Shown piece by piece: positions 2,691 to 46,606 of a stretch of 64,000 bases of DNA. The notes below the pieces were generated by a model, which was given only the letters and a program-made list of their open reading frames with translations, was not told where the DNA came from and did not search any database. The stretch lies in NCBI RefSeq assembly GCF_044324785.1, contig NZ_CP172127.1, one strand, 5' to 3'. The stretch is from Escherichia coli. GTDB lineage: Bacteria; Pseudomonadota; Gammaproteobacteria; Enterobacterales; Enterobacteriaceae. Every line of letters starts with the position of its first letter. Positions within the stretch are counted from its first letter, which is position 1. The position numbers and the translations under genes were made by a program.

Positions 2691-3739
2691 GGTTTTTATT
2701 GGGCGTGCTGATGCTGATGATCTCCGGCTCAGCGCTGGCGACCATCGACGTGTTGCAGTTTAAAGATGAAGCACAGGAACAACAGTTCCGTCAGCTCACT
2801 GAAGAACTGCGCTGCCCGAAATGCCAGAACAACAGCATTGCCGATTCCAACTCGATGATTGCTACCGACCTGCGCCAGAAAGTGTATGAACTGATGCAGG
2901 AAGGTAAAAGTAAGAAAGAGATTGTCGATTATATGGTGGCGCGTTACGGCAACTTCGTCACTTACGATCCGCCGTTAACGCCGCTGACCGTGCTGCTGTG
3001 GGTGCTTCCGGTAGTGGCTATTGGCATTGGCGGTTGGGTCATTTACGCCCGTTCGCGGCGTCGGGTACGCGTGGTGCCGGACGCGTTTCCTGAACAAAGC
3101 GTGCCGGAAGGTAAGCGTGCCGGATATGTTGTTTATCTGCCGGGTATTGTGGTGGCGTTAATTGTGGCTGGCGTCAGCTACTACCAGACGGGCAATTATC
3201 AGCAGGTGAAAATCTGGCAGCAGGCCACGGCACAGGCTCCGGCGTTACTGGACAGGGCGCTGGATCCGAAAGCCGATCCGCTCAACGAAGAAGAGATGTC
3301 GCGCCTTGCGCTGGGGATGCGTACTCAACTGCAAAAAAATCCGGGAGATATAGAAGGCTGGATTATGTTGGGCCGCGTTGGTATGGCGCTGGGTAACGCC
3401 AGTATCGCCACCGATGCATACGCCACTGCGTATCGCCTCGATCCGAAGAACAGCGATGCTGCACTGGGATACGCTGAAGCGTTGACACGTTCATCTGATC
3501 CCAACGACAACCGTCTCGGCGGCGAACTGCTACGTCAGCTGGTGAGAACGGACCATAGCAATATCCGTGTGTTAAGCATGTATGCGTTTAATGCCTTTGA
3601 GCAGCAGCGATTTGGCGAAGCCGTTGCCGCGTGGGAGATGATGTTGAAACTCTTACCTGCCAACGATACTCGCCGTGCGGTGATTGAACGTAGTATCGCG
3701 CAGGCGATGCAACATTTGTCGCCGCAGGAGAGTAAATAA
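2687..3739 (+). CDS. ccmH: Cytochrome c maturation protein CcmH (fused CcmH/CcmI type)
   Basis: 350 aa, signal peptide, LRCPKC motif, TPR-like C-terminal half; 4-nt overlap with ccmG. Confidence 0.95.
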   Translation: MRFLLGVLMLMISGSALATIDVLQFKDEAQEQQFRQLTEELRCPKCQNNSIADSNSMIATDLRQKVYELMQEGKSKKEIVDYMVARYGNFVTYDPPLTPLTVLLWVLPVVAIGIGGWVIYARSRRRVRVVPDAFPEQSVPEGKRAGYVVYLPGIVVALIVAGVSYYQTGNYQQVKIWQQATAQAPALLDRALDPKADPLNEEEMSRLALGMRTQLQKNPGDIEGWIMLGRVGMALGNASIATDAYATAYRLDPKNSDAALGYAEALTRSSDPNDNRLGGELLRQLVRTDHSNIRVLSMYAFNAFEQQRFGEAVAAWEMMLKLLPANDTRRAVIERSIAQAMQHLSPQESK

Positions 3740-32313: not shown

Positions 32314-34005
32314 ATGAAAACGCTGCTGATTATTGACGCTAATCTCGGTCAGGCACGCGCCTATATGGCGAAGACCCTGCTGGGCGCGGCGGCGCGAAAA
32401 GCAAAACTGGAAATCATCGACAATCCGAACGACGCTGAAATGGCGATTGTTCTCGGTGATTCCATCCCGAACGACAGCGCGCTGAACGGTAAAAATGTCT
32501 GGCTGGGCGATATTTCCCGGGCAGTTGCGCACCCTGAGCTGTTCCTGAGTGAAGCCAAAGGCCATGCGAAACCTTACACTGCGCCGGTCGCTGCGGCAGC
32601 ACCGGTTGCCGCCAGCGGTCCGAAACGCGTAGTTGCGGTGACTGCTTGCCCGACTGGCGTAGCACACACCTTTATGGCGGCTGAAGCCATTGAAACCGAA
32701 GCGAAAAAACGTGGCTGGTGGGTGAAAGTTGAAACCCGTGGTTCGGTTGGCGCGGGTAATGCAATCACCCCTGAAGAAGTAGCCGCAGCGGATCTGGTGA
32801 TTGTGGCGGCAGATATTGAAGTGGATCTGGCGAAATTTGCTGGTAAACCGATGTATCGCACCTCTACCGGTCTGGCGCTGAAGAAAACCGCGCAGGAGCT
32901 GGATAAAGCGGTTGCTGAAGCAACGCCGTATGAACCGGCGGGCAAAGCTCAAACGGCGACCACTGAAGGTAAGAAAGAGAGTGCAGGCGCTTATCGTCAC
33001 TTGCTGACGGGCGTTTCTTACATGCTGCCGATGGTCGTTGCAGGTGGTCTGTGTATCGCGCTTTCCTTTGCTTTTGGTATCGAAGCGTTTAAAGAGCCGG
33101 GTACGTTGGCAGCGGCGCTGATGCAGATTGGTGGTGGTTCAGCCTTTGCGCTGATGGTGCCGGTACTGGCAGGTTATATTGCCTTCTCCATTGCCGATCG
33201 TCCGGGTCTCACGCCGGGTCTGATTGGCGGTATGCTGGCGGTCAGCACTGGTTCTGGCTTCATTGGCGGTATTATTGCGGGCTTCCTGGCTGGTTACATT
33301 GCGAAGTTAATCAGTACGCAATTGAAACTGCCACAGAGTATGGAGGCGCTGAAACCGATTCTGATCATTCCGCTAATTTCCAGTCTGGTGGTCGGTCTGG
33401 CGATGATCTACCTGATCGGTAAACCGGTTGCTGGCATTCTCGAAGGGTTGACTCACTGGCTGCAGACCATGGGGACTGCGAATGCGGTTCTGCTGGGGGC
33501 GATCCTCGGTGGCATGATGTGTACTGACATGGGCGGTCCGGTAAACAAAGCAGCGTACGCGTTCGGTGTGGGTCTGCTGAGTACTCAAACCTATGGCCCG
33601 ATGGCGGCGATTATGGCGGCAGGTATGGTGCCACCGCTGGCAATGGGCCTGGCAACAATGGTGGCGCGTCGCAAATTCGACAAAGCGCAGCAGGAAGGGG
33701 GCAAAGCCGCTCTGGTATTGGGACTGTGCTTCATTTCGGAAGGTGCAATTCCGTTTGCTGCTCGTGATCCGATGCGTGTGCTGCCGTGCTGTATCGTGGG
33801 TGGGGCGCTGACTGGCGCAATCTCAATGGCGATTGGTGCGAAACTGATGGCACCGCACGGTGGTCTGTTTGTTCTGCTGATCCCTGGCGCGATTACGCCG
33901 GTATTGGGTTACCTGGTAGCCATTATTGCCGGTACGCTGGTGGCGGGTCTGGCCTATGCCTTCCTGAAACGTCCGGAAGTGGACGCAGTAGCGAAAGTAG
34001 CTTAA
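32314..34005 (+). CDS. fruA: Fructose PTS EIIB'BC component FruA
   Basis: 563 aa; duplicated N-terminal EIIB-type domains then polytopic EIIC. Confidence 0.95.
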   Translation: MKTLLIIDANLGQARAYMAKTLLGAAARKAKLEIIDNPNDAEMAIVLGDSIPNDSALNGKNVWLGDISRAVAHPELFLSEAKGHAKPYTAPVAAAAPVAASGPKRVVAVTACPTGVAHTFMAAEAIETEAKKRGWWVKVETRGSVGAGNAITPEEVAAADLVIVAADIEVDLAKFAGKPMYRTSTGLALKKTAQELDKAVAEATPYEPAGKAQTATTEGKKESAGAYRHLLTGVSYMLPMVVAGGLCIALSFAFGIEAFKEPGTLAAALMQIGGGSAFALMVPVLAGYIAFSIADRPGLTPGLIGGMLAVSTGSGFIGGIIAGFLAGYIAKLISTQLKLPQSMEALKPILIIPLISSLVVGLAMIYLIGKPVAGILEGLTHWLQTMGTANAVLLGAILGGMMCTDMGGPVNKAAYAFGVGLLSTQTYGPMAAIMAAGMVPPLAMGLATMVARRKFDKAQQEGGKAALVLGLCFISEGAIPFAARDPMRVLPCCIVGGALTGAISMAIGAKLMAPHGGLFVLLIPGAITPVLGYLVAIIAGTLVAGLAYAFLKRPEVDAVAKVA

Positions 34006-34018
34006 TAAAACGTGAACG

Positions 34019-34043
34019 ACAGGGCAGAAATTTCCTGCCCTGT
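34019..34043 (+). terminator. Hairpin immediately 3' of fruA (weak terminator, no strong T-run)
   Basis: 9-bp stem acagggcag/ctgccctgt with 7-nt loop. Confidence 0.45.
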
Positions 34044-34159
34044 ATCATTTGAAGATCGCAAGGTGACTGACTAGTTCTTGAGGGTAACTATATGAATTTT
34101 ATGTTTTTATCTTTAAGTTGAAACCAGAAATCTCATCAAACGTTAATGTTATTTCCTCA

Positions 34160-34187
34160 AGGGCAGATTATTTTCTGCCCTTTTTTA
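34160..34187 (+). terminator. Rho-independent terminator in the fruA-psuK spacer
   Basis: Stem agggcaga/tctgccct followed by a 6-T run; stem sequence nearly identical to the hairpin at 34019. Confidence 0.7.
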
Positions 34188-34326
34188 TTGTTCCTGTTCT
34201 GTGCATCCCGTCACAAATTCCCCGTTTTTATAATTCAGGCATTTAATCGCGTTTTGTGAGCCTGCTCAAATCTGCCCATTTTGCCTCTCTGGCGGTAATT
34301 TACTTTACGTAAAACATGCATACTAT

Positions 34327-34360
34327 GAGCACATGTTTAAATATGAACACATGTTTAAAC
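34327..34360. promoter_or_regulatory. Tandem direct repeats (candidate operator) upstream of psuK
   Basis: gagcacatgtttaaat and gaacacatgtttaaac, 18-bp period, each with palindromic cores (acatgt, tttaaa). Confidence 0.3.
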
Positions 34361-34426: not shown

Positions 34427-35368
34427 ATGCGCGAAAAGGATTATGTCGTAATTATAGGTTCGGCGAATATTGATGTCGCCGGATATTCACATGAATCATT
34501 AAATTATGCGGATTCAAATCCAGGTAAAATAAAATTTACGCCTGGTGGAGTCGGGCGCAATATTGCACAAAACCTGGCGTTGCTGGGGAACAAAGCCTGG
34601 CTACTGAGCGCCGTAGGCAGTGATTTTTATGGTCAATCGCTGCTAACGCAAACCAATCAATCTGGCGTTTATGTCGATAAATGCCTGATAGTGCCGGGAG
34701 AAAATACGTCAAGCTATTTATCATTACTCGATAATACCGGTGAAATGCTGGTTGCTATAAATGACATGAATATTAGCAACGCTATTACAGCTGAATATCT
34801 CGCACAGCACCGTGAATTTATTCAGAGGGCAAAGGTCATTGTCGCAGACTGTAATATCAGTGAAGAGGCACTGGCATGGATTCTGGATAATGCCGCCAAC
34901 GTACCTGTATTTGTCGATCCTGTTTCCGCGTGGAAATGTGTCAAAGTGCGCGACCGTCTAAATCAAATCCACACTCTCAAGCCAAACCGCCTTGAAGCGG
35001 AAACCCTGAGTGGGATTGCGCTGTCAGGGCGTGAAGATGTGGCAAAAGTTGCTGCCTGGTTCCATCAACATGGCCTGAACCGACTGGTATTGAGCATGGG
35101 CGGCGACGGCGTTTATTACAGCGATATCAGCGGTGAAAGTGGCTGGTCTGCGCCGATCAAAACCAATGTTATTAATGTTACCGGAGCGGGCGATGCCATG
35201 ATGGCGGGGCTTGCTTCGTGTTGGGTAGACGGAATGCCGTTTGCCGAATCTGTTCGTTTCGCACAGGGATGTTCGTCAATGGCGCTCTCCTGTGAATACA
35301 CCAATAACCCCGATTTATCGATTGCCAACGTTATATCGTTAGTGGAGAACGCAGAATGTCTGAATTAA
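34427..35368 (+). CDS. psuK: Pseudouridine kinase (PfkB family)
   Basis: 313 aa; PfkB motifs (GGVGRN; C-terminal GAGD). Confidence 0.9.
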   Translation: MREKDYVVIIGSANIDVAGYSHESLNYADSNPGKIKFTPGGVGRNIAQNLALLGNKAWLLSAVGSDFYGQSLLTQTNQSGVYVDKCLIVPGENTSSYLSLLDNTGEMLVAINDMNISNAITAEYLAQHREFIQRAKVIVADCNISEEALAWILDNAANVPVFVDPVSAWKCVKVRDRLNQIHTLKPNRLEAETLSGIALSGREDVAKVAAWFHQHGLNRLVLSMGGDGVYYSDISGESGWSAPIKTNVINVTGAGDAMMAGLASCWVDGMPFAESVRFAQGCSSMALSCEYTNNPDLSIANVISLVENAECLN

Positions 35369-36294
35369 AAATTTCCCCTGAATTATTACAAATTTCCCCA
35401 GAAGTGCAGGACGCTTTAAAAAACAAAAAACCGATCGTGGCGCTGGAATCGACCATTATTTCTCACGGGATGCCGTTCCCACAAAATGCCCAGACCGCAA
35501 TTGAAGTTGAAGAAACTATTCGTAAACAGGGCGCGGTACCTGCCACTATCGCCATTATTGGCGGCGTGATGAAAGTGGGTTTAAGCAAAGAAGAAATTGA
35601 ATTGCTGGGTCGTGAAGGGCATAACGTGACCAAAGTTAGTCGTCGCGATTTACCTTTTGTTGTTGCCGCAGGGAAAAATGGCGCAACCACCGTTGCTTCA
35701 ACGATGATTATTGCGGCGCTTGCCGGAATTAGAGTATTTGCCACCGGGGGAATTGGTGGTGTGCATCGCGGGGCGGAACATACCTTCGATATTTCTGCCG
35801 ATTTGCAAGAGCTGGCAAATACTAATGTCACCGTTGTTTGTGCCGGGGCGAAATCTATTCTCGATTTAGGATTAACCACTGAGTATTTAGAAACTTTCGG
35901 TGTACCGCTAATTGGCTATCAGACCAAAGCGCTGCCTGCGTTTTTCTGCCGTACCAGCCCGTTTGACGTCAGCATTCGTCTCGACAGCGCCAGTGAAATT
36001 GCCCGTGCAATGGCGGTGAAATGGCAAAGCGGGCTGAACGGTGGCCTCGTGGTAGCGAACCCGATCCCGGAACAGTTTGCGATGCCGGAGGAATCTATCA
36101 ATGCAGCCATAGATCAAGCCGTCGCCGAAGCCGAAGAGCAGGGCGTTATTGGTAAAGAAAGCACACCGTTCCTGCTGGCTCGTGTTGCTGAACTGACTGG
36201 CGGTGACAGCCTGAAATCCAACATCCAGCTGGTGTTCAACAACGCCATTCTGGCGAGCGAAATTGCCAAAGAATATCAGCGTCTCGCGGGTTAA
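35356..36294 (+). CDS. psuG: Pseudouridine-5'-phosphate glycosidase
   Basis: 312 aa; 13-nt overlap with psuK. Confidence 0.9.
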   Translation: MSELKISPELLQISPEVQDALKNKKPIVALESTIISHGMPFPQNAQTAIEVEETIRKQGAVPATIAIIGGVMKVGLSKEEIELLGREGHNVTKVSRRDLPFVVAAGKNGATTVASTMIIAALAGIRVFATGGIGGVHRGAEHTFDISADLQELANTNVTVVCAGAKSILDLGLTTEYLETFGVPLIGYQTKALPAFFCRTSPFDVSIRLDSASEIARAMAVKWQSGLNGGLVVANPIPEQFAMPEESINAAIDQAVAEAEEQGVIGKESTPFLLARVAELTGGDSLKSNIQLVFNNAILASEIAKEYQRLAG

Positions 36295-36321
36295 TTTCTG
36301 ACGGGCAGAAAGCCGTCGCCC
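36294..36321 (+). repeat. Conserved 28-nt leader element, copy 1 (upstream of psuT)
   Basis: atttctgacgggcagaaagccgtcgccc; near-identical copy at 39522..39549. Confidence 0.6.
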
Positions 36322-36387
36322 GTACTCATCAAGCATACCAAAACCTGGCGCTGACGCCGGGTTTACTGGCATGAAGGGAAAATCATT

Positions 36388-37638
36388 ATGGATATAATGA
36401 GAAGTGTTGTGGGGATGGTGGTGTTACTGGCAATAGCATTTCTGTTGTCAGTGAATAAAAAGAGCATCAGTTTGCGCACGGTTGGAGCCGCACTGCTGCT
36501 GCAAATTGCCATTGGTGGCATCATGCTCTATTTTCCGCCGGGAAAATGGGCAGTAGAACAGGCGGCATTAGGCGTTCATAAAGTGATGTCTTACAGTGAT
36601 GCCGGTAGCGCCTTCATTTTTGGTTCGCTGGTCGGGCCGAAAATGGATGTCCTCTTTGACGGTGCGGGTTTTATCTTTGCCTTTCGCGTACTCCCGGCGA
36701 TTATCTTCGTCACTGCGCTCATCAGCCTGCTGTACTACATTGGCGTGATGGGGCTGCTAATCCGCATTCTTGGCAGTATTTTTCAGAAAGCCCTCAACAT
36801 CAGCAAAATCGAATCTTTTGTTGCGGTTACTACTATTTTCCTCGGGCAAAATGAGATCCCGGCGATCGTAAAACCGTTTATCGATCGCATGAATCGCAAC
36901 GAGCTATTTACGGCAATTTGTAGCGGGATGGCGTCCATTGCCGGTTCGATGATGATTGGTTATGCCGGAATGGGCGTACCAATTGACTACCTGTTAGCGG
37001 CATCGCTGATGGCGATCCCTGGTGGTATTTTGTTTGCACGTATTCTTAGCCCAGCCACCGAGCCTTCGCAGGTGACATTTGAAAATCTGTCGTTCAGCGA
37101 AACGCCGCCAAAAAGCTTTATCGAAGCAGCGGCGAGCGGTGCGATGACCGGGTTGAAAATCGCCGCTGGTGTGGCGACGGTGGTAATGGCGTTTGTCGCA
37201 ATTATTGCGCTGATCAACGGTATTATCGGCGGAATTGGCGGCTGGTTTGGTTTTGCCAATGCCTCTCTGGAAAGTATTTTTGGCTATGTGCTGGCACCGC
37301 TGGCGTGGATCATGGGTGTGGACTGGAGTGATGCCAACCTGGCGGGTAGCCTGATTGGGCAGAAACTGGCGATTAACGAATTCGTCGCTTACCTGAGTTT
37401 CTCCCCATACCTGCAAACGGGCGGCACGCTGGAAGTGAAAACCATTGCGATTATCTCCTTTGCGCTTTGTGGTTTTGCTAACTTTGGTTCTATCGGTGTT
37501 GTCGTTGGCGCATTTTCGGCTATTTCGCCAAAACGCGCACCGGAAATCGCCCAGCTTGGTTTACGGGCGCTGGCAGCTGCCACGCTTTCCAACCTGATGA
37601 GCGCGACTATTGCCGGGTTCTTTATTGGTTTAGCTTGA
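36388..37638 (+). CDS. psuT: NupC-family (CNT) nucleoside transporter
   Basis: 416-aa polytopic membrane protein; highly similar along its length to the ORF at 39575..40825. Confidence 0.9.
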   Translation: MDIMRSVVGMVVLLAIAFLLSVNKKSISLRTVGAALLLQIAIGGIMLYFPPGKWAVEQAALGVHKVMSYSDAGSAFIFGSLVGPKMDVLFDGAGFIFAFRVLPAIIFVTALISLLYYIGVMGLLIRILGSIFQKALNISKIESFVAVTTIFLGQNEIPAIVKPFIDRMNRNELFTAICSGMASIAGSMMIGYAGMGVPIDYLLAASLMAIPGGILFARILSPATEPSQVTFENLSFSETPPKSFIEAAASGAMTGLKIAAGVATVVMAFVAIIALINGIIGGIGGWFGFANASLESIFGYVLAPLAWIMGVDWSDANLAGSLIGQKLAINEFVAYLSFSPYLQTGGTLEVKTIAIISFALCGFANFGSIGVVVGAFSAISPKRAPEIAQLGLRALAAATLSNLMSATIAGFFIGLA

Positions 37639-37644
37639 GTTTCA

Positions 37645-37684
37645 TTGCCGGAGGTACGCGCTTATTAAATGTTGCATCCGGCAA
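37645..37684. repeat. REP-like inverted repeat downstream of psuT
   Basis: 8-bp arms ttgccgga/tccggcaa with GC-rich interior resembling a REP half-unit. Confidence 0.4.
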
Positions 37685-37705
37685 TCGCGCTATTGCAAAT
37701 AATTT

Positions 37706-38365
37706 TTACTGCATCATCCCGGAGAATTTATTCTCCGGGTCCATCTCCAGTGCCAGTCCTGACAACTGCTTTCTGTTTTTAATTAGATACCCTTTCTTGC
37801 TTTTAATTAATAAACCGTCGTGAATGAATTGCGCGAGAACATATAAAAGATGTCGATAAGAAACGCCTAAATACTCTGCCGCTTGCGTATGCTTTTCGTG
37901 ATAAAGATCACCTTCCTGCGAGAGTAATATAAAAGCTGCCAGGCGATTCACTAATGGAAATGATTGATTCTGAGTTAAAGAAACAATATTACGATAATTT
38001 TTATGACTTAAGGTGACGCAGAGTTTTCGTAAAAATAGCGTGTCGTTTAATAACAGCGGGCGGTAATGTTTCATAGGGAGCGCAAGGCACCAACACTCTT
38101 CAATAGCCTGCACCGCACGCGGTTCATGGTCTTTGTCGATTAACTCAATCTCGCCAATAAAACAGGGGGCGGCAAAGAAATCGATCAGCGACACGCGACC
38201 ATTAGCTAGCGTGGCGTAAAGCCTGGCGCGGCCTCGCGTCAGGTAAAACAGCCAGGACGGCTGTTGCCCTTCCTGCACAATGTAGTCACGCGCTAAAAAA
38301 TGAAACAGCCGCGTATCGGCTGAAACATCCGTTGAAAAGCAATCCTTAAACGCGGATTCACTCAT
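37706..38365 (-). CDS. yeiL: CRP/FNR-family transcriptional regulator YeiL
   Basis: 219 aa from internal Met (MSESAF); N-terminal nucleotide-binding-like domain, C-terminal HTH; Cys residues. Confidence 0.8.
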
Positions 38366-38533
38366 CAATTGCTGCTTAAGATCATTATTGTGGATTTCTT
38401 TCACGATGTTTATCCGCTATGAGATTTCTCATATTTAGCATACGTACGCTGTTGTTAAGATTCAATCATCGGCCCGGTCGAATTTTCTTTGCTGTAGAAA
38501 AAATAACGCAACTGGAAACAGAGGAAATAAACA

Positions 38534-39475
38534 ATGGAAAAGAGAAAAATTATTCTGGATTGTGATCCGGGTCATGATGATGCTATTGCAATGATGATGG
38601 CAGCGAAACATCCGGCGATTGATTTATTAGGTATCACCATTGTAGCGGGTAATCAGACGCTTGATAAAACATTAATTAATGGCCTGAATGTTTGCCAGAA
38701 ACTGGAGATTAATGTTCCGGTTTATGCGGGGATGCCACAGCCCATTATGCGGCAACAAATTGTTGCCGATAATATTCACGGTGAAACCGGACTGGATGGC
38801 CCGGTATTCGAGCCGCTGACCCGCCAGGCAGAAAGCACTCATGCGGTGAAATATATCATCGATACCCTGATGGCAAGCGATGGCGATATCACTCTGGTGC
38901 CGGTTGGTCCGCTTTCAAATATCGCGGTGGCAATGCGTATGCAACCCGCGATCCTGCCCAAAATCCGTGAAATTGTGCTAATGGGCGGCGCTTACGGTAC
39001 AGGCAACTTCACCCCATCTGCCGAGTTCAACATCTTTGCCGACCCGGAAGCCGCACGCGTGGTGTTCACCTCCGGCGTTCCGTTGGTGATGATGGGCCTC
39101 GATCTCACCAACCAGACTGTTTGCACCCCGGACGTGATTGCCCGGATGGAAAGGGTAGGCGGCCCCGCCGGAGAGCTGTTCAGCGACATCATGAATTTCA
39201 CTCTAAAAACGCAGTTCGAAAACTACGGCCTGGCTGGCGGCCCGGTGCATGACGCCACCTGCATCGGTTATCTGATTAACCCTGATGGCATTAAAACCCA
39301 GGAGATGTACGTCGAAGTGGACGTTAACAGCGGCCCTTGCTACGGGCGTACGGTCTGCGACGAGCTGGGCGTTCTTGGCAAGCCCGCCAATACCAAAGTC
39401 GGCATCACTATTGATACCGACTGGTTCTGGGGATTAGTCGAAGAGTGCGTGCGCGGCTACATCAAAACCCATTAA
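38534..39475 (+). CDS. rihB: Pyrimidine-specific ribonucleoside hydrolase RihB
   Basis: 313 aa; N-terminal DxDxxxDD nucleoside-hydrolase motif (DCDPGHDD). Confidence 0.9.
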
Positions 39476-39521
39476 GTGTTGATAACAAGCCGGATCAGTG
39501 TCGCAAGATGCAGGCCCGGCT

Positions 39522-39549
39522 ATTTCTGATGGGCAGAAAGCCGTCGCCC
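39522..39549 (+). repeat. Conserved 28-nt leader element, copy 2 (upstream of nupX)
   Basis: atttctgatgggcagaaagccgtcgccc; one mismatch to copy 1. Confidence 0.6.
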
Positions 39550-39574
39550 AAAATGACATGAAGAGATAATAACT

Positions 39575-40825
39575 ATGGATGTCATGAGAAGTGTTCTGGG
39601 AATGGTGGTATTGCTGGCAATTGCGTTTTTGCTGTCAGTAAACAAGAAGAAGATCAGCCTGCGTACCGTTGGCGCGGCGTTAGTGTTACAGGTCGTGATT
39701 GGCGGCATTATGCTTTGGTTACCGCCAGGGCGTTGGGTCGCAGAAAAAGTCGCTTTTGGCGTGCATAAAGTGATGGCGTACAGCGACGCGGGTAGCGCAT
39801 TTATCTTTGGTTCTCTGGTCGGACCGAAAATGGACACCTTATTTGATGGCGCAGGATTTATCTTTGGCTTCAGGGTATTACCGGCAATTATCTTCGTTAC
39901 AGCACTGGTGAGTATTCTCTACTACATCGGTGTGATGGGGATCTTAATTCGAATTCTCGGCGGTATATTCCAGAAAGCATTGAATATCAGCAAGATCGAG
40001 TCATTCGTCGCGGTTACTACCATTTTCCTCGGGCAAAACGAAATTCCGGCAATCGTCAAACCCTTTATCGATCGTCTGAATCGCAATGAATTATTTACAG
40101 CGATTTGTAGTGGCATGGCCTCGATTGCTGGTTCGACAATGATTGGTTATGCCGCTCTGGGCGTGCCTGTGGAATATCTGCTGGCGGCATCGTTAATGGC
40201 GATCCCCGGCGGGATCTTGTTTGCCCGCCTGTTAAGCCCGGCTACCGAATCTTCGCAGGTTTCCTTTAATAACCTCTCTTTCACCGAAACACCGCCAAAA
40301 AGCATTATTGAAGCCGCCGCTACAGGGGCAATGACCGGGCTGAAAATCGCAGCAGGTGTGGCGACAGTGGTGATGGCATTTGTTGCCATCATTGCGTTGA
40401 TTAACGGAATTATCGGCGGCGTTGGCGGCTGGTTTGGTTTTGAACATGCCTCGCTGGAGTCAATTTTAGGTTATCTGTTGGCTCCACTGGCGTGGGTGAT
40501 GGGGGTTGACTGGAGTGATGCGAATCTTGCCGGGAGTTTGATTGGACAGAAACTGGCGATTAATGAATTTGTCGCTTACCTCAATTTCTCACCTTATCTG
40601 CAAACAGCTGGCACTCTGGATGCTAAAACCGTGGCGATTATTTCTTTCGCGTTGTGCGGTTTCGCTAACTTTGGTTCTATCGGGGTGGTGGTTGGCGCAT
40701 TTTCTGCGGTTGCGCCACACCGTGCACCGGAAATCGCCCAGCTTGGTTTACGCGCGCTGGCGGCGGCGACACTTTCTAACCTGATGAGTGCCACCATTGC
40801 AGGATTCTTTATTGGCTTAGCGTAG
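39575..40825 (+). CDS. nupX: NupC-family (CNT) nucleoside transporter
   Basis: 416 aa, paralog of psuT with long identical blocks. Confidence 0.9.
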   Translation: MDVMRSVLGMVVLLAIAFLLSVNKKKISLRTVGAALVLQVVIGGIMLWLPPGRWVAEKVAFGVHKVMAYSDAGSAFIFGSLVGPKMDTLFDGAGFIFGFRVLPAIIFVTALVSILYYIGVMGILIRILGGIFQKALNISKIESFVAVTTIFLGQNEIPAIVKPFIDRLNRNELFTAICSGMASIAGSTMIGYAALGVPVEYLLAASLMAIPGGILFARLLSPATESSQVSFNNLSFTETPPKSIIEAAATGAMTGLKIAAGVATVVMAFVAIIALINGIIGGVGGWFGFEHASLESILGYLLAPLAWVMGVDWSDANLAGSLIGQKLAINEFVAYLNFSPYLQTAGTLDAKTVAIISFALCGFANFGSIGVVVGAFSAVAPHRAPEIAQLGLRALAAATLSNLMSATIAGFFIGLA

Positions 40826-40839
40826 TGCGCGAGTTATGA

Positions 40840-40873
40840 GCCGGATAAGACGCGGTCAAGCGTCGAATCCGGC
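40840..40873. repeat. REP-like element downstream of nupX
   Basis: gccggataagacgcg…cgtcgaatccggc palindrome. Confidence 0.6.
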
Positions 40874-40880
40874 AACATTG

Positions 40881-41969
40881 TTACACCATCGGCACTAATG
40901 AAAGCGCGTTTTCGGCAGACAGGGTAGGGTTGTTTAAGCTGCCGCTGGCGCGTGAAATTGCCGCGCAGGCCATCGCAAAACGGGCGCTGTCACGGAAATT
41001 GTTTCCCTCCAGAAAGCTATATACCAGGCCCGCCATAAAACCATCGTCAGCACCAAAACTGTCTACTGTCGTATGCGCTGGCGCTGTCAGCAAAAATTGT
41101 TCTCCATCCTTTTCGCTGCAATAAACTGACTCATCGGGCAAATAAACAAACAGTTGCTGAACACCTTGCTGATGCAACGTATTCACTGCGGCATTACGGT
41201 CAGCATCGCTGGTGATCGCCTGTCCCCATAAAATTTCCAGCTCCGGTAAAGTGGGTTTCAGGGTGTGAATATGCGCCAGCCAGTGTTTGATTTTGCCCGC
41301 TTTGAATTCTGAAACGGTATCGACAAACACCGGGATTTCATCAGCGAGGGTAAAGACCCACTCCAGCGCCTCGGCTGTCAGGTTGCAATCAGCAAGTACC
41401 ACGCCCGCATGACGAAGTAAATCGCGCGACCCGTTCAGTAGTTGCGGTGTCAACTGATCCAGCAGATGGGTATCGTTAATCGCCAGCACGGTTTGATCGT
41501 CTCGATTGGCAATTGCCAGATACGTCGATGTGCTTTGACCATGTAAACGAACGCAGCCGGAGACATTCACGCCGGCGCGGCGCGTTTCTTCCAGGAGCAT
41601 TTCGCCATAAAAGTCATCGCCAATCACTGAAAGCAAATGGACGTCGCGGCCTAACAGCGCCAAATTGTGGGCGATATTGCGCCCCACGCCGCCCGCCGAG
41701 CAATGAATTGTACCGGGATGAGAAGCCGCTTGCGGGTAACGGATATCCGCCATCCCGCGAATATCCATATTGATTGTCCCCACCACTACGCAGTATTCCT
41801 GCTCGGTGAGAATGTAACCTTTGCCTTTAATTCGACCTTTGCGCATTAAATCCATAATATGCGCCGCAACGCGCGAACGGCTGATTTGCAGCATATCAGC
41901 AATTTCGTTCTGCTGAATCAGCGGGTTACGCCGTAAAATTGCAAGGATCTCCTTCTCCCGGTTGTTCAT
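40881..41969 (-). CDS. yeiI: HTH-domain fused to PfkB-family carbohydrate/nucleoside kinase (YeiI)
   Basis: 362 aa; N-terminal ~55-aa HTH, remainder clearly homologous to PsuK (shared GGVGRNIA-NLALLG block). Confidence 0.85.
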   Translation of the reverse strand: MNNREKEILAILRRNPLIQQNEIADMLQISRSRVAAHIMDLMRKGRIKGKGYILTEQEYCVVVGTINMDIRGMADIRYPQAASHPGTIHCSAGGVGRNIAHNLALLGRDVHLLSVIGDDFYGEMLLEETRRAGVNVSGCVRLHGQSTSTYLAIANRDDQTVLAINDTHLLDQLTPQLLNGSRDLLRHAGVVLADCNLTAEALEWVFTLADEIPVFVDTVSEFKAGKIKHWLAHIHTLKPTLPELEILWGQAITSDADRNAAVNTLHQQGVQQLFVYLPDESVYCSEKDGEQFLLTAPAHTTVDSFGADDGFMAGLVYSFLEGNNFRDSARFAMACAAISRASGSLNNPTLSAENALSLVPMV

Positions 41970-41971
41970 CT

Positions 41972-42829
41972 TCAGGCTACCGCTTTTTCAGTTTGTTGCG
42001 CTTTCAGCCAGGCGATCTCTTCTGCCCAGATATCCGGGTTGATGGTTTCAAGGATCAGCGGAATGCCGTCGAAACGGTCGTCCTGCATGATCCAGCGGAA
42101 CGCATCATGACCGATATTGCCTTCACCGAGGCTATGATGGCGGTCAACGCGGCTGCCAAAGGTGCTTTTCGCATCGTTAAGGTGCATCCCGCGCAGATAC
42201 TTAAAGCCGACAATACGGGCAAAATCAGCGAACGTTTTCTCGCATTCGGCTGGAGTACGCAAATCATACCCGGCAGCAAAAGCATGGCAGGTATCAATGC
42301 AGACGCCGACGCGGGATTTATCTTCCACGCCGTCGATAATCGCCGCGAGATGTTCGAATTTAAACCCTAAGTTACTGCCCTGACCGGCGGTGTTTTCAAT
42401 CACCGCTGTTACACCTTGAGTTTTATCCAGCGCAATGTTGATGGATTCAGCAATACGCGCAAGGCAATCCTCTTCTGAAATCTGCATCAGATGGCTGCCA
42501 GGGTGGAAGTTGAGCAAAGAAAGCCCCAGCTGTTCGCAACGCTGCATTTCATCTATAAACGCATCGCGCGATTTTTCCAGAGCTTCAGCGACCGGATGTC
42601 CGAGGTTAATCAGATAACTGTCGTGGGGAAGAATTTGCGCCGATGTGTAGTGATATTTTTCACAGGCGGCTTTGAATTCATCGATGGTTTGCGTCGTGAG
42701 CGGTGCGGCACGCCACTGACGTTGGTTTTTGGTGAACAAGGCAAACGCGGTTGCGTCGATTTCGGCGGCGCGAATTGCGGCATTTGCCAGACCGCCAGCA
42801 GCACTAACGTGCGCTCCAATGTATTTCAT
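41972..42829 (-). CDS. nfo: Endonuclease IV (AP endonuclease)
   Basis: 285 aa TIM-barrel AP endonuclease; 2-nt gap to yeiI downstream. Confidence 0.95.
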
Positions 42830-42902
42830 GCGAGGACTCCTGTTAAACCCGCTGGAGGAAAACGGTAATGATAGCGGGTTAACAGGAGCAAGATGTAGTG
42901 GT

Positions 42903-43952
42903 TTATGCGATGACGCTTTGAATCACATAGTTAATCGCACCACCACCAACAATCAGCCAGGCAAACAGTACCAGTGCCATCAGCAGAGGTTTCGCCCCGG
43001 CTTTTTTCAGCGCGCTGACGTGAGTGGTCAGACCCAGCGCCGCCATCGCCATTGCCAGCAGGAAGGTATCCAGCGTTACCAGCATGTTCACCACGCTCTG
43101 CGGTAACAGGTGGAACGAGTTAAAGATGGCAACTACGATGAACAAGATGGCAAACCACGGAATAGTGATTTTGCTTTTCTCGCCGCTGTTCGCCCCAGAC
43201 AGCTGTTTAACACGCGCCGCCAGCAGGATGAGGAACGGAGCCAGCATCATCACGCGCAGCATTTTGGAAATAACTGCTGCGTTTTCCGCATCCGGGCTGA
43301 TGGCATGACCTGCCGCCACCACCTGCGCCACTTCGTGCACAGTAGAACCAATGTAGATACCGAAAGTTTCCGGACTAAACCATTGAGACATCAGCGGATA
43401 TATCGCCGGGTAGAGGAAAATCGCCACGGTCCCGAAGATAACAACGGTTGCAACAGCCACGGTTACTTTACTGGCTTCCGCTTTCACTACCGGCTCAGTC
43501 GCCAGTACCGCGGCAGCACCACAGATACTGCTACCGGCACCGATCAACCAGCTGGTGTGCTTATCCAGACCAAACACTTTCTGCCCCAGGAAGCAAGCCA
43601 GCAGGAAGGTACTGGACAGCGTCAACACGTCAATAATGATCCCACTGATACCGACATCGGCAATTTGCGAGAACGTCAGACGGAAGCCATAAAGAATGAT
43701 ACCCAGACGTAATAAATATTGCTTGGCAAACAGCACACCACCGTCACAGCTTTTCCAGATGTGCGGATAGATGGTGTTGCCTAAAACCATCCCCAACAAA
43801 ATTGCGAGGGTGAGGGCACTAAACCCGGCACCCGCAACCGCGGGAATGGAACCACCCCACAGGGCGACCCCGGTGATAACTGCACTCAGGGCTAACCCCG
43901 GAATAAAATGCCACAGTGTACGATGTTGTTTCTGTAAGGTGATATTCGTCAT
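42903..43952 (-). CDS. yeiH: Inner-membrane protein YeiH (UPF0324)
   Basis: 349-aa polytopic membrane protein; divergent from the LysR regulator yeiE. Confidence 0.85.
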
Positions 43953-44050
43953 AACCCTCTCCTTTAACCGGGCATAAGGTTACGACTAACTGGTTTAAAA
44001 ATAAAATTGATTATATATTTATAATTAATCTTTATAAGTGGTAAGCGACT

Positions 44051-44932
44051 ATGCACATCACCCTCCGGCAGTTGGAAGTTTTTGCAGAAGTATTGAAAAG
44101 TGGATCAACCACCCAGGCGTCGGTGATGCTGGCGTTGTCGCAATCAGCAGTGAGCGCAGCCTTGACCGACCTGGAAGGGCAGCTTGGCGTGCAACTGTTT
44201 GATCGCGTGGGGAAAAGACTGGTTGTTAATGAACACGGGCGGCTGCTCTATCCGCGCGCGTTGGCACTGCTTGAACAGGCGGTTGAAATCGAACAACTGT
44301 TTCGCGAAGACAACGGCGCGATTCGTATCTATGCCAGTAGTACTATCGGTAACTACATTCTGCCTGCAGTCATTGCCCGTTATCGCCATGATTATCCGCA
44401 GTTGCCGATTGAACTTAGCGTTGGGAACAGCCAGGACGTGATGCAAGCGGTGCTGGATTTCCGCGTTGATATTGGCTTTATTGAAGGACCGTGCCACAGC
44501 ACTGAAATCATTTCTGAACCGTGGCTGGAAGACGAGCTGGTGGTTTTCGCCGCGCCGACTTCGCCATTGGCTCGTGGTCCGGTCACCTTAGAACAGCTGG
44601 CCGCTGCGCCGTGGATCCTTCGTGAACGCGGCTCCGGCACGCGGGAGATTGTCGATTATCTGTTGCTGTCACATTTACCGAAGTTTGAGATGGCGATGGA
44701 ATTAGGTAACTCCGAGGCAATCAAACATGCGGTGCGTCATGGGTTGGGAATTAGTTGCCTGTCGCGACGGGTGATTGAAGATCAATTGCAGGCAGGCACA
44801 TTAAGTGAAGTTGCGGTCCCTCTGCCGCGCCTGATGCGTACGTTGTGGCGTATACATCATCGGCAAAAACACCTTTCCAACGCGCTACGGCGCTTTCTGG
44901 ACTATTGCGATCCCGCGAATGTACCGCGTTAA
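44051..44932 (+). CDS. yeiE: LysR-type transcriptional regulator YeiE
   Basis: 293 aa; N-terminal wHTH, C-terminal substrate-binding domain. Confidence 0.85.
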
Positions 44933-45136
44933 GTTGCTGTACAAGAACATGCTGGTGCTGTGTCGATTTCGTGACGCAGCGCCCTCAGCATGCATTCGCC
45001 AGAAAAGAGATTGGCTGCTTTACTTATAATCCCTGGGCGATCATGAAGGTGTCTTATAACCGTGTATTTCTGCCGGAAGGATTGCCAATCGTCTGCTACA
45101 ATCGCGCCTCATTTTTAAGATGGATAGCATTTTTGT

Positions 45137-46606
45137 ATGGTTTCCGAAACTAAAACCACAGAAGCGCCGGGCTTACGCCGTGAATTAAAGGCGCGTCACC
45201 TGACGATGATTGCCATTGGCGGTTCCATCGGTACAGGTCTTTTTGTTGCCTCTGGCGCAACGATTTCTCAGGCAGGTCCGGGCGGGGCATTGCTCTCGTA
45301 TATGTTGATTGGCCTGATGGTTTACTTCCTGATGACCAGTCTCGGTGAACTGGCTGCATATATGCCGGTTTCCGGTTCGTTTGCCACTTATGGTCAGAAC
45401 TATGTTGAAGAAGGCTTTGGCTTCGCGCTGGGCTGGAACTACTGGTACAACTGGGCGGTGACTATCGCCGTTGACCTGGTTGCAGCTCAGCTGGTCATGA
45501 GCTGGTGGTTCCCGGATACACCGGGCTGGATCTGGAGTGCGCTGTTCCTCGGCGTTATCTTCCTGCTGAACTACATCTCAGTTCGTGGCTTTGGTGAAGC
45601 GGAATACTGGTTCTCACTGATCAAAGTCACGACAGTTATTGTCTTTATCATCGTTGGCGTGCTGATGATTATCGGTATCTTCAAAGGCGCGCAGCCTGCG
45701 GGCTGGAGCAACTGGACAATCGGCGAAGCGCCGTTTGCTGGTGGTTTTGCGGCGATGATCGGCGTAGCTATGATTGTCGGCTTCTCTTTCCAGGGAACCG
45801 AGCTGATCGGTATTGCTGCAGGCGAGTCCGAAGATCCGGCGAAAAACATTCCACGCGCGGTACGTCAGGTGTTCTGGCGAATCCTGTTGTTCTATGTGTT
45901 CGCGATCCTGATTATCAGCCTGATTATTCCGTACACCGATCCGAGCCTGCTGCGTAACGATGTTAAAGACATCAGCGTCAGTCCGTTCACCCTGGTGTTC
46001 CAGCACGCGGGTCTGCTCTCTGCGGCGGCGGTGATGAACGCAGTTATTCTGACGGCGGTGCTGTCAGCGGGTAACTCCGGGATGTATGCGTCTACTCGTA
46101 TGCTGTACACCCTGGCGTGTGACGGTAAAGCGCCGCGCATTTTTGCTAAACTGTCGCGTGGTGGCGTGCCGCGTAATGCGCTGTATGCGACGACGGTGAT
46201 TGCCGGTCTGTGCTTCCTGACCTCCATGTTTGGCAACCAGACGGTATATCTGTGGCTGCTGAACACCTCCGGGATGACGGGTTTTATCGCCTGGCTGGGG
46301 ATTGCCATTAGCCACTATCGCTTCCGTCGCGGTTACGTATTGCAGGGACACGACATTAACGATCTGCCGTACCGTTCAGGTTTCTTCCCATTGGGGCCGA
46401 TCTTCGCATTCATTCTGTGTCTGATTATCACTTTGGGCCAGAACTACGAAGCGTTCCTGAAAGATACCATTGACTGGGGCGGCGTAGCGGCAACGTATAT
46501 TGGTATCCCGCTGTTCCTGATTATTTGGTTCGGCTACAAGCTGATTAAAGGAACCCACTTCGTACGCTACAGCGAAATGAAGTTCCCGCAGAACGATAAG
46601 AAATAA
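45137..46606 (+). CDS. lysP: Lysine-specific permease LysP (APC family)
   Basis: 489 aa, 12-TM amino-acid permease. Confidence 0.95.
   Translation: MVSETKTTEAPGLRRELKARHLTMIAIGGSIGTGLFVASGATISQAGPGGALLSYMLIGLMVYFLMTSLGELAAYMPVSGSFATYGQNYVEEGFGFALGWNYWYNWAVTIAVDLVAAQLVMSWWFPDTPGWIWSALFLGVIFLLNYISVRGFGEAEYWFSLIKVTTVIVFIIVGVLMIIGIFKGAQPAGWSNWTIGEAPFAGGFAAMIGVAMIVGFSFQGTELIGIAAGESEDPAKNIPRAVRQVFWRILLFYVFAILIISLIIPYTDPSLLRNDVKDISVSPFTLVFQHAGLLSAAAVMNAVILTAVLSAGNSGMYASTRMLYTLACDGKAPRIFAKLSRGGVPRNALYATTVIAGLCFLTSMFGNQTVYLWLLNTSGMTGFIAWLGIAISHYRFRRGYVLQGHDINDLPYRSGFFPLGPIFAFILCLIITLGQNYEAFLKDTIDWGGVAATYIGIPLFLIIWFGYKLIKGTHFVRYSEMKFPQNDKK

Follow-up and report, generated by a model that had tools for sequence, protein, structure and literature searches.

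Twin hairpins between fruA and psuK of Escherichia are probably two copies of one ancestral terminator hairpin

Why should the spacer behind an operon carry the same hairpin twice? This question is raised by the fruA-psuK spacer in a window of Escherichia coli DNA (the whole stretch analysed, 64,000 nucleotides; contig NZ_CP172127.1). Two hairpins with a common stem follow each other after the stop codon of fruA, and a very short open reading frame with a Shine-Dalgarno (SD) sequence lies between them. The arrangement could be taken for a leader peptide, for a small RNA, for a pair of terminators or for the trace of a duplication. The six genes fruB, fruK, fruA, psuK, psuG and psuT lie in this order on the + strand of the window. 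The features which matter for the discussion are the following.

32314..34005, + strand: fruA coding sequence, last gene of fruBKA, with its TAA stop codon at 34003-34005 (from the ORF list and the RefSeq annotation of orthologous E. coli loci)
34006..34018, + strand: linker of 13 nt between the stop codon and HP1
34019..34043, + strand: HP1, probable copy of the fruBKA terminator hairpin without a U-tract; 9-bp stem, 7-nt loop
34044..34158, + strand: spacer of 115 nt, AT-rich, probably an inserted segment; single-copy and fast-evolving
34092..34121, + strand: 9-codon ORF MNFMFLSLS, ATG at 34092 and TGA at 34121; judged to be a chance ORF
34159..34188, + strand: HP2 with T6, predicted Rho-independent terminator of fruBKA and probably the ancestral copy
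34427..35368, + strand: psuK coding sequence, the next gene, on the same strand as fruA

HP1 consists of ACAGGGCAG/aaatttc/CTGCCCTGT, and its tail in the window, AUCAUUUG, has no T-run. HP2 is formed by AAGGGCAGA/ttattt/TCTGCCCTT at 34159-34182. Its stem has nine pairs, five of them GC, and closes a loop of 6 nt, as expected for the GC-rich stem of an intrinsic terminator (at least 5 bp with a loop of 3-8 nt). Directly 3′ of the stem TTTTTTATTGTT provides a U-tract, with T6 at 34183-34188. No U-tract follows HP1, neither in the window (where the tail is also given as ATCATTTGAAG) nor in the B2-type allele described below (tail CAAACGCAAA). A terminator scan called HP2 as the sole intrinsic terminator between fruA and psuK and left HP1 uncalled. 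Of the two hairpins HP1 is still the stabler one in each of the three allele classes, with folding energies of -17.9 kcal/mol in the window, -21.3 kcal/mol in K-12 and -29.5 kcal/mol in the B2 allele vs -15.5 kcal/mol for HP2. Each allele class lengthens the stem of HP1 with flanking bases of its own, and the stem-loop starts 7-14 nt after the fruA stop codon. The C-terminus of FruA, ...KRPEVDAVAKVA*, is intact, as it is in 80 relatives.

All elements on which the first-pass annotation had built are present in the DNA. These are the twin hairpins with their common stem, the T-run behind the second hairpin, the ORF with GAGGG (34080-34084) placed 7 nt upstream, and a perfect complementarity between cttgagg (34077-34083) and cctcaag (34155-34161). 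We compared them with chance expectation. Matches to the pattern GGGCAG-N3-12-CTGCCC number two in the 64-kb window, with 0.09 expected, and both lie at this locus. In about 535 kb, that is, in the window and the fetched loci together, no other locus has twin hairpins with 7-bp stems of identical sequence at a distance of 50-320 nt. The twin hairpins are beyond chance and the pair is kept across Escherichia. The 7-nt complementarity and the combination of SD and ORF are within chance. In the 501 nt around the site there are 19 inverted repeats of at least 7 nt, and an ATG with an SD-like core and at least nine codons is met in the window about once per 1.7 kb per strand.

The DNA 3′ of fruA was fetched from 80 species, and 75 of the loci are non-Escherichia. 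A single GGGCAG...CTGCCC hairpin with a T-run follows fruA at 32 of these 75 loci, the 32 belonging to Enterobacteriaceae; two hairpins were found at none of the 75. The single hairpin typically reads AGGGCAGAGATTTCTCTGCCC, then comes the T-run, and it is located 15-28 nt after the stop codon in 31 of the 32 cases and 44 nt after it in the remaining one. In Escherichia the GGGCAG core of HP1 lies at +16 from the stop codon, which is the ancestral distance, and is not followed by a T-run; the second hairpin lies at +156 (as in the window) or +188 and has the T-run. The linker ATTTCCTCA just before HP2 matches the linker between stop codon and hairpin of Citrobacter sedlakii, in which GAATTTCCTCA directly precedes the single hairpin. 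The 3′ end of the spacer (about 34150-34158, tATTTCCTCA) thus corresponds to the ancestral linker between stop codon and terminator. HP2 is orthologous to the single hairpin with T-run of Citrobacter, Klebsiella, Enterobacter and Buttiauxella, and in these genera the DNA downstream of the hairpin continues into the psuK upstream region. In Citrobacter amalonaticus, where psuK also follows, the T-run leads straight into the homologue of the psuK upstream region of the window. As far as sequence comparison can tell, it is shown by these other genera that the layout in Escherichia is a duplicated one.

We suggest that HP1 and HP2 are probably two copies of one ancestral terminator hairpin and the footprint of an insertion with a target duplication of hairpin length, HP2 being the terminator and HP1 a stem-loop in the 3′ UTR. 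The event could have proceeded in these steps. The ancestor would have had one intrinsic-terminator hairpin with a T-run after fruA. Then, in the Escherichia lineage, about 115 nt would have been inserted between the 3′ foot of the hairpin and the T-tract, and a second copy of the hairpin would have arisen beyond the insert. The outcome would be the present order of stop codon, HP1 without a T-run, insert, and HP2 with the original T-run. All Escherichia lineages examined have the split layout; one of them has lost HP2 later by deletion.

The window carries its own version of the region. None of 5,426 complete E. coli genomes has the same 211 nt, the best match being 85%. For the genes on either side the identity to E. 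coli is about 98%. The spacer is closest to that of the cryptic-clade Escherichia E1V33 (89%). Constraint was measured as the share of invariant columns across five lineages, and the four-fold sites of fruA, 57% of which are invariant, served as neutral reference. Only 48% of the spacer columns are invariant vs 78% in the arms of HP1 (14 of 18 columns) and 89-100% in the arms of HP2; the T-tract is invariant throughout (100%), and stem and T-tract of HP2 together have 23 of 24 columns invariant. The regulatory block of psuK at 34301-34360 reaches 98%. By this measure the hairpins are under constraint and the spacer, including the ORF, is unconstrained and changes no more slowly than neutral sites. 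Gene conversion between HP1 and HP2 (concerted evolution) could mimic purifying selection.

A second allele class is found in other lineages. About 1,190 E. coli genomes (B2-type, e.g., ATCC 25922) depart from the window sequence 27 nt upstream of the stop codon of fruA, and their psuKGT genes are just 87% identical to those of the window. B2-type E. coli and E. albertii likewise have two hairpins that go back to the one ancestral hairpin. These are separated by 147-148 nt, and this interval is exactly one complete REP mosaic of the BIME-1/RIP type, which abuts both hairpins directly. BIME-1 elements, also known as RIP (RIB), are mosaics of REP, IHF site and REP and are located at the 3′ ends of E. 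coli transcription units, as described by Gilson and Hofnung, by Boccard and Prentki and by Oppenheim. The 98-nt core of the B2-allele element is present at at least 18-50 places per E. coli genome, and the end motifs flanking this core recur at paralogous copies.

Twin hairpins around a BIME-1 are not restricted to fruA. Among six BIME-1 paralogs taken from E. coli genomes, the one behind fbaA has a copy of the fbaA terminator on either side. A scan of metagenomes for the central motif of BIME-1 yielded 26 unique loci. With mismatched loci as null, direct repeats from flank to flank are at or above the 99th percentile at four of the 26 loci, where 0.26 would be expected, and two further loci are visibly decayed cases. 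At each such locus the repeat is a hairpin specific for that locus. The left copy usually has no T-run and the right copy has kept it in several instances, which is the layout of HP1 and HP2. Natural empty sites exist for two of the loci. Between fbaA and mscS some E. coli strains have one terminator, whereas K-12 has terminator, BIME-1 and terminator and is 167 nt longer. Between metE and ysgA E. coli K-12 has one hairpin with a T-run, and an Escherichia contig of 93-94% identity has hairpin, BIME-1 and hairpin with T-run. In principle, the empty site at fbaA could be derived, by a deletion between the two repeats, and not ancestral. In all, the pattern is seen at fruA in two allele classes, at fbaA-mscS, at metE-ysgA and at several other BIME-1 sites. 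The other REPs of the window provided no further example of twin hairpins. In a Pluralibacter genome fruA is followed by this arrangement as well, built from another hairpin sequence.

Since the layout in the window matches that at the BIME-1 sites, its twin hairpins are best read as a hairpin-length target duplication from such an insertion. A more general proposal would be that BIME-1 inserts between the 3′ foot of a terminator hairpin and the T-tract and thereby duplicates the whole hairpin, that is, 20-37 nt, and that the twins at fruA, including the REP-less version of the window, are footprints of this process. We put this forward tentatively and with more doubt than confidence. If it is true, twin terminator hairpins would be a readable signature of REP/BIME mobility, and they would suggest that an extruded hairpin or cruciform is cut at its feet. 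A target duplication which has the length of a structure would then be a concrete and testable clue to the spread of REP and BIME. It would also explain why some operons have a stem-loop without U-tract after the stop codon together with a long 3′ UTR.

Whether the spacer of the window is itself a decayed BIME-1 appears to us evenly balanced. Unlike BIME-1, it carries no REP palindrome or REP motif (GCC(G/T)GATG head) at 34044-34158, it is not matched by a BIME-1 profile HMM, and it occurs at a median of one place per E. coli genome where the B2-allele element occurs at at least 18-50. The collinear similarity to BIME-1 is weak. By eye TGTAATTTTATGAATTT of K-12 agrees with the central L motif (the IHF site) TGCAATATATTGAATTT at 13 of 17 positions and TGATGAGCGC resembles a REP head. 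The REP-less spacers are 115-118 nt long and the BIME-1 interval 147 nt. Low-identity local alignment to the paralog consensus gave p values of 0.004-0.007 for locus L006, 0.012-0.08 for K-12 and 0.09-0.33 for the remaining lineages. When the spacer was tested strictly against BIME-1, locally and globally, the outcome was nonsignificant or marginal. With cores trimmed post hoc at matching ends p was 0.002-0.02, which is a biased estimate, and with fixed ends 0.03-0.34. In addition, most alleles contain an 8-nt inverted repeat, TTTGATGA/TCATCAAA.

Other sources of the spacer were considered and rejected. An element derived from a MITE or an IS does not fit, because the spacer is single-copy and the flanking repeat is a whole hairpin of 21-22 nt and not a short target duplication of fixed length. 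The spacer was also rejected as a mobile or repeated element, being single-copy in E. coli and without a match to phages. The five matches to records labelled as plasmids are to sequences of 0.37-4.9 Mb which contain the same segment and are apparently mislabelled chromosomes. Nor does the region belong to a known RNA family at the Rfam threshold, the best match being DapZ on the opposite strand with 21.2 bits vs a gathering score of 56 (E = 0.7); the sub-threshold DapZ-like matches on the hairpins have 17-21 bits.

The first-pass annotation had proposed a small transcript or leader peptide with a structure that sequesters the ribosome binding site. In the form of a switch, a ribosome, either one translating the 9-codon ORF or one positioned at the stop codon of fruA, would select between alternative pairings and so control read-through into psuKGT. 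Such a switch would resemble the leader-peptide attenuators of the trp, his and pheA type in that a short ORF lies between two hairpins of which the second is a terminator, and the means for it seem to be at hand in the window: GAGGG lies 7 nt upstream of the ORF, cttgagg can pair with cctcaag beside HP2, and the 3′ arm of HP1 is able to pair with the 5′ arm of HP2. However, ORF, SD and cttgagg are all unconserved. In the relatives the reading frame, the length, the start and the stop of the ORF vary. The E. coli version is changed by a 1-nt indel to MNLNGFIF or MNLNGFIFQ and has no SD (GAATG), in E. whittamii the stop codon is lost, and the ATG is missing from locus L006. GAGGG exists only in the window, where relatives read GAATG, GAAGA or AATGG. 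Likewise, cttgagg is specific for the window (TTGTGAA, ATTGAAG or CTTAATG in relatives), whereas its partner in the ancestral linker never varies; thus there is no covariation, and the proposed sequestering is not supported. In the minimum free energy fold of the region the ORF and its SD are within a local stem at 34077-34117 and are unpaired with 34155-34161. The antiterminator model, in which a ribosome masks the 5′ arm of HP1 and the 3′ arm pairs with the 5′ arm of HP2, is thermodynamically disfavoured, since with the 5′ arm of HP1 masked the terminator conformer has -36.0 kcal/mol vs -31.1 kcal/mol for the antiterminator, a gap of 4.9 kcal/mol. The consensus fold (RNAalifold) keeps HP1 and HP2 with a covariation term between them of merely -0.34 kcal/mol and few compensatory pairs, and a conserved RNA structure in the spacer was rejected on this ground. 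We found neither a conserved in-frame ORF with a ribosome binding site nor conserved and mutually exclusive terminator and antiterminator pairings. Moreover, unlike an attenuator, the element follows an operon instead of preceding one, and downstream of HP2, outside the twin-hairpin feature, psuK is served by a promoter and a strongly conserved regulatory region (34299-34360) of its own. A leader switch is therefore extremely improbable, and from its sequence the 9-codon ORF is judged to be a chance feature. This removes a false candidate for a small ORF or leader.

A small RNA might alternatively be formed by the spacer and HP2, either processed from the 3′ UTR or transcribed independently, with HP2 as an Hfq-type terminator and the conserved blocks UCAUCAAAC and UUUCCUCA as seed. 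It would share with the Hfq-dependent RNAs CpxQ, SdhX and DapZ a long 3′ UTR which ends in a U-tailed terminator, and a U-rich stretch precedes HP2 in addition to the U6 behind it. The two short blocks before HP2 are indeed conserved, but they belong to the ancestral linker and are also found in the genera with a single terminator. No conserved unstructured seed is seen beyond the linker, and the greater part of the spacer shows no constraint. In Hfq RIL-seq of K-12 without fructose induction, RNA from between fruA and psuK was recovered (node fruA.psuK.IGR, 42 chimeras with one partner; PMC8175672, Table S1). With an sRNA score of 0.001 and an SIC of -1 this node behaves as a low-count, target-like RNA, which may equally be the 5′ UTR of psuK; the second position in the chimera and the many partners of an sRNA were not observed under these conditions. 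The promoter scan called no promoter on the + strand, and the lack of an Rfam family distinguishes the region further from the known 3′-UTR-derived sRNAs. The supplements of Adams 2021 (Term-seq), TERMITe and Stringer 2021 (small ORFs) yielded no entries for fruA/psuK. We consider the sRNA very improbable; neither a leader peptide nor an sRNA is supported.

Two explanations remain which take the hairpins themselves as the essential feature. Both hairpins could stop fruBKA transcription, HP1 partially and HP2 as backstop. They are stable, GC-rich and downstream of the operon, the tail of HP1 in the window has four U in 8 nt, and in K-12 UUUG comes right after the extended stem. Against this stands the outcome of the terminator scan, which found HP1 without a U-tract. 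The tail CAAACGCAAA behind HP1 in B2-type E. coli and E. albertii contains not a single U, and what is conserved is thus not a U-tract; the left copy in the BIME-1 twins usually has no T-run either. We regard such a pair of terminators as unlikely. The tandem terminators of the first-pass annotation are closer to the mark but not exact: HP2 does have its U-tract, and HP1 appears to be a copy of the hairpin which was parted from the T-run by the insertion. In refined form there would be a duplicated terminator hairpin around an insertion, with the distal copy alone acting as terminator. The other explanation dispenses with a mobile element and assumes a local tandem duplication of the 3′ end of fruA with its terminator, the spacer being the decayed last ~100 nt of fruA. 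A first hairpin without T-run would be expected here as well. At locus L006 the direct repeat extends beyond the hairpins by 25-38 nt on their upstream side, into the region of the fruA stop codon (p = 0.002-0.0075), and in every allele the alignment of TAATAAAAC with TCATCAAAC keeps the same register. Yet the extended repeat is confined to L006, and a spacer profile searched against the whole (masked) window does not single out the 3′ end of fruA and has no match there. Pairwise local alignments of the spacer to the fruA 3′ end and to the downstream spacer are not above those of shuffled sequences, which led us to reject the spacer as a relic of either. Also, other lineages have a BIME-1 between the hairpins at this very locus. 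A tandem duplication is thus quite unlikely.

We return to the reading of HP1 and HP2 as copies of one terminator hairpin around an insertion and ask what each of them might do. The sequence of HP2 shows every part of a Rho-independent terminator and orthology to the terminator of the outgroups. It is GC-rich, carries U6 and comes after the last gene of the operon like other intrinsic terminators, and differs from them in having a copy of its own hairpin without U-tract 140 nt upstream. Because of its anatomy and orthology HP2 is expected to end the fruBKA transcripts. HP1 should be unable to terminate efficiently because it has no U-tract. Its conservation and stability suggest that it is probably retained by selection as a very stable stem-loop of the 3′ UTR. 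Stem-loops of the REP type at 3′ ends reportedly stabilise the upstream mRNA or, at less than about 15 nt from the stop codon, affect translation termination (Newbury and Higgins 1987; Liang, Rudd and Deutscher 2015). HP1 is like them very stable (-18 to -30 kcal/mol), lies close behind the fruA stop codon (start at 7-14 nt) and is structurally conserved; unlike them it has no REP sequence. By this analogy HP1 would most plausibly be a barrier to 3′-to-5′ exonucleases once the AU-rich spacer is cut, and it might possibly also affect the events at the termination codon. The spacer, the 9-codon ORF and the 7-nt complementarity would have no function of their own. The feature of the window would then be an ordinary one, a working terminator with a relic copy of its hairpin, and neither a hidden gene nor a riboswitch.

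The fruA-psuK spacer is also known as an adaptive hotspot of evolution in the mouse gut, where a recurrent SNP has been described as lying in the psuK promoter (PMC9509342, PMC7518454). By coordinate conversion this SNP maps about 126 nt upstream of psuK, outside the twin-hairpin feature.

At several other loci, two copies of the locus-specific terminator hairpin flank BIME-1, the RIP-type REP element that occupies the interval between the twin hairpins HP1 and HP2 in E. albertii and B2-type E. coli. We found this arrangement between fbaA and mscS (comparison loci L096, L104 and L219), between metE and ysgA (L105) and in the loci L109, L102, L126 and L110. The flanking hairpin repeats are 20-37 nt long and a T-run follows the right copy only. 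For two of the loci natural empty sites exist. Within E. coli, fbaA-mscS occurs with a single hairpin (L218) as well as in the occupied form (L096/L104/L219), and at metE-ysgA the K-12 site is empty with one hairpin whereas that of another Escherichia is occupied (L105 vs L220). When the flank repeats were compared with a mismatched-locus null, 4 of the 26 unique BIME-1 loci lay above the 99th percentile.

In Pluralibacter sp. UBA7423 (L067, about 3125-3280), the DNA 3′ of fruA carries the terminator AAAGGGCCGATTTCGGCCCTTTTT, next a BIME and after it AAAGGGTCGACACGGTCGGCCCTTTTT. The Pluralibacter arrangement is an independent instance in a different genus.

The spacer allele of the window (33998-34150) was absent from all 5,426 complete E. 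coli genomes, with a best match of 85% over 211 nt, and its nearest relative is found in the cryptic-clade Escherichia sp. E1V33 (89%). The genes flanking the spacer are about 98% E. coli-like. Compared with the window, B2-type E. coli is 98.6% identical in fruBKA and only about 87% identical in the spacer and psuKGT; the B2-type spacer is similar to that of E. albertii. A recombination breakpoint is located 27 nt 5′ of the fruA stop codon (window 33979 onward; L004, L005). Downstream of the spacer, the 10 kb from 36000 to 46000 have E. coli matches of at most 98.4%. The divergent spacer, its E. coli-like flanking genes and this downstream stretch together suggest a mosaic or an unusual lineage.

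Upstream of psuK, 59 of the 60 columns of the block 34301-34360 are invariant in five Escherichia lineages, which is far above neutral. At 34324-34359 lies an 18-nt direct repeat in tandem, TATGAGCACATGTTTAAA and TATGAACACATGTTTAAA, which contains palindromes. The block with its repeats is probably an operator of a regulator. A recurrent adaptive SNP (A>C) in the psuK/fruA spacer, at K-12 v2 position 2257444, was reported for E. coli during evolution in the mouse gut (PMC7518454, PMC9509342). By coordinate conversion this SNP would correspond to window position 34301, within TTTACT (about 34299-34304), and would turn this hexamer into TTGACT, a better -35 hexamer located 16 nt 5′ of TACTAT.

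RNA from the spacer also appears in the Hfq RIL-seq data of stationary-phase E. coli K-12. The entry fruA.psuK.IGR, which could be fruA 3′ UTR or psuK 5′ UTR, forms 42 chimeras with one well-connected sRNA and is the first, target-like partner in every one of them.

Further rearrangements were seen around the fruA terminator. An IS200/IS605-family element lies directly 3′ of the terminator T-tract in E. coli GTEN_97 (L003, about 761 onward), and two Phytobacter species (L068, L078) carry 3′ of the terminator an element sharing its left-end sequence. In Escherichia sp. MOD1-EC7003 (L007, 3106-4300) a 1.35-kb deletion from mid-spacer (window-equivalent 34125) into psuG (35478) takes out HP2, psuK and the psuG start; another gap, about 1 kb long, extends from just 3′ of psuG into psuT (36404 to 37432). 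The fruA gene of this strain thus retains HP1 only and provides a natural test of HP1 alone. For the laboratory strain E. coli ER1709 (H15, NZ_CP030240.1) the query matches only over its last 84 nt, with psuK as well as fruB annotated beneath the match; this pattern suggests that a deletion joined fruB to psuK.
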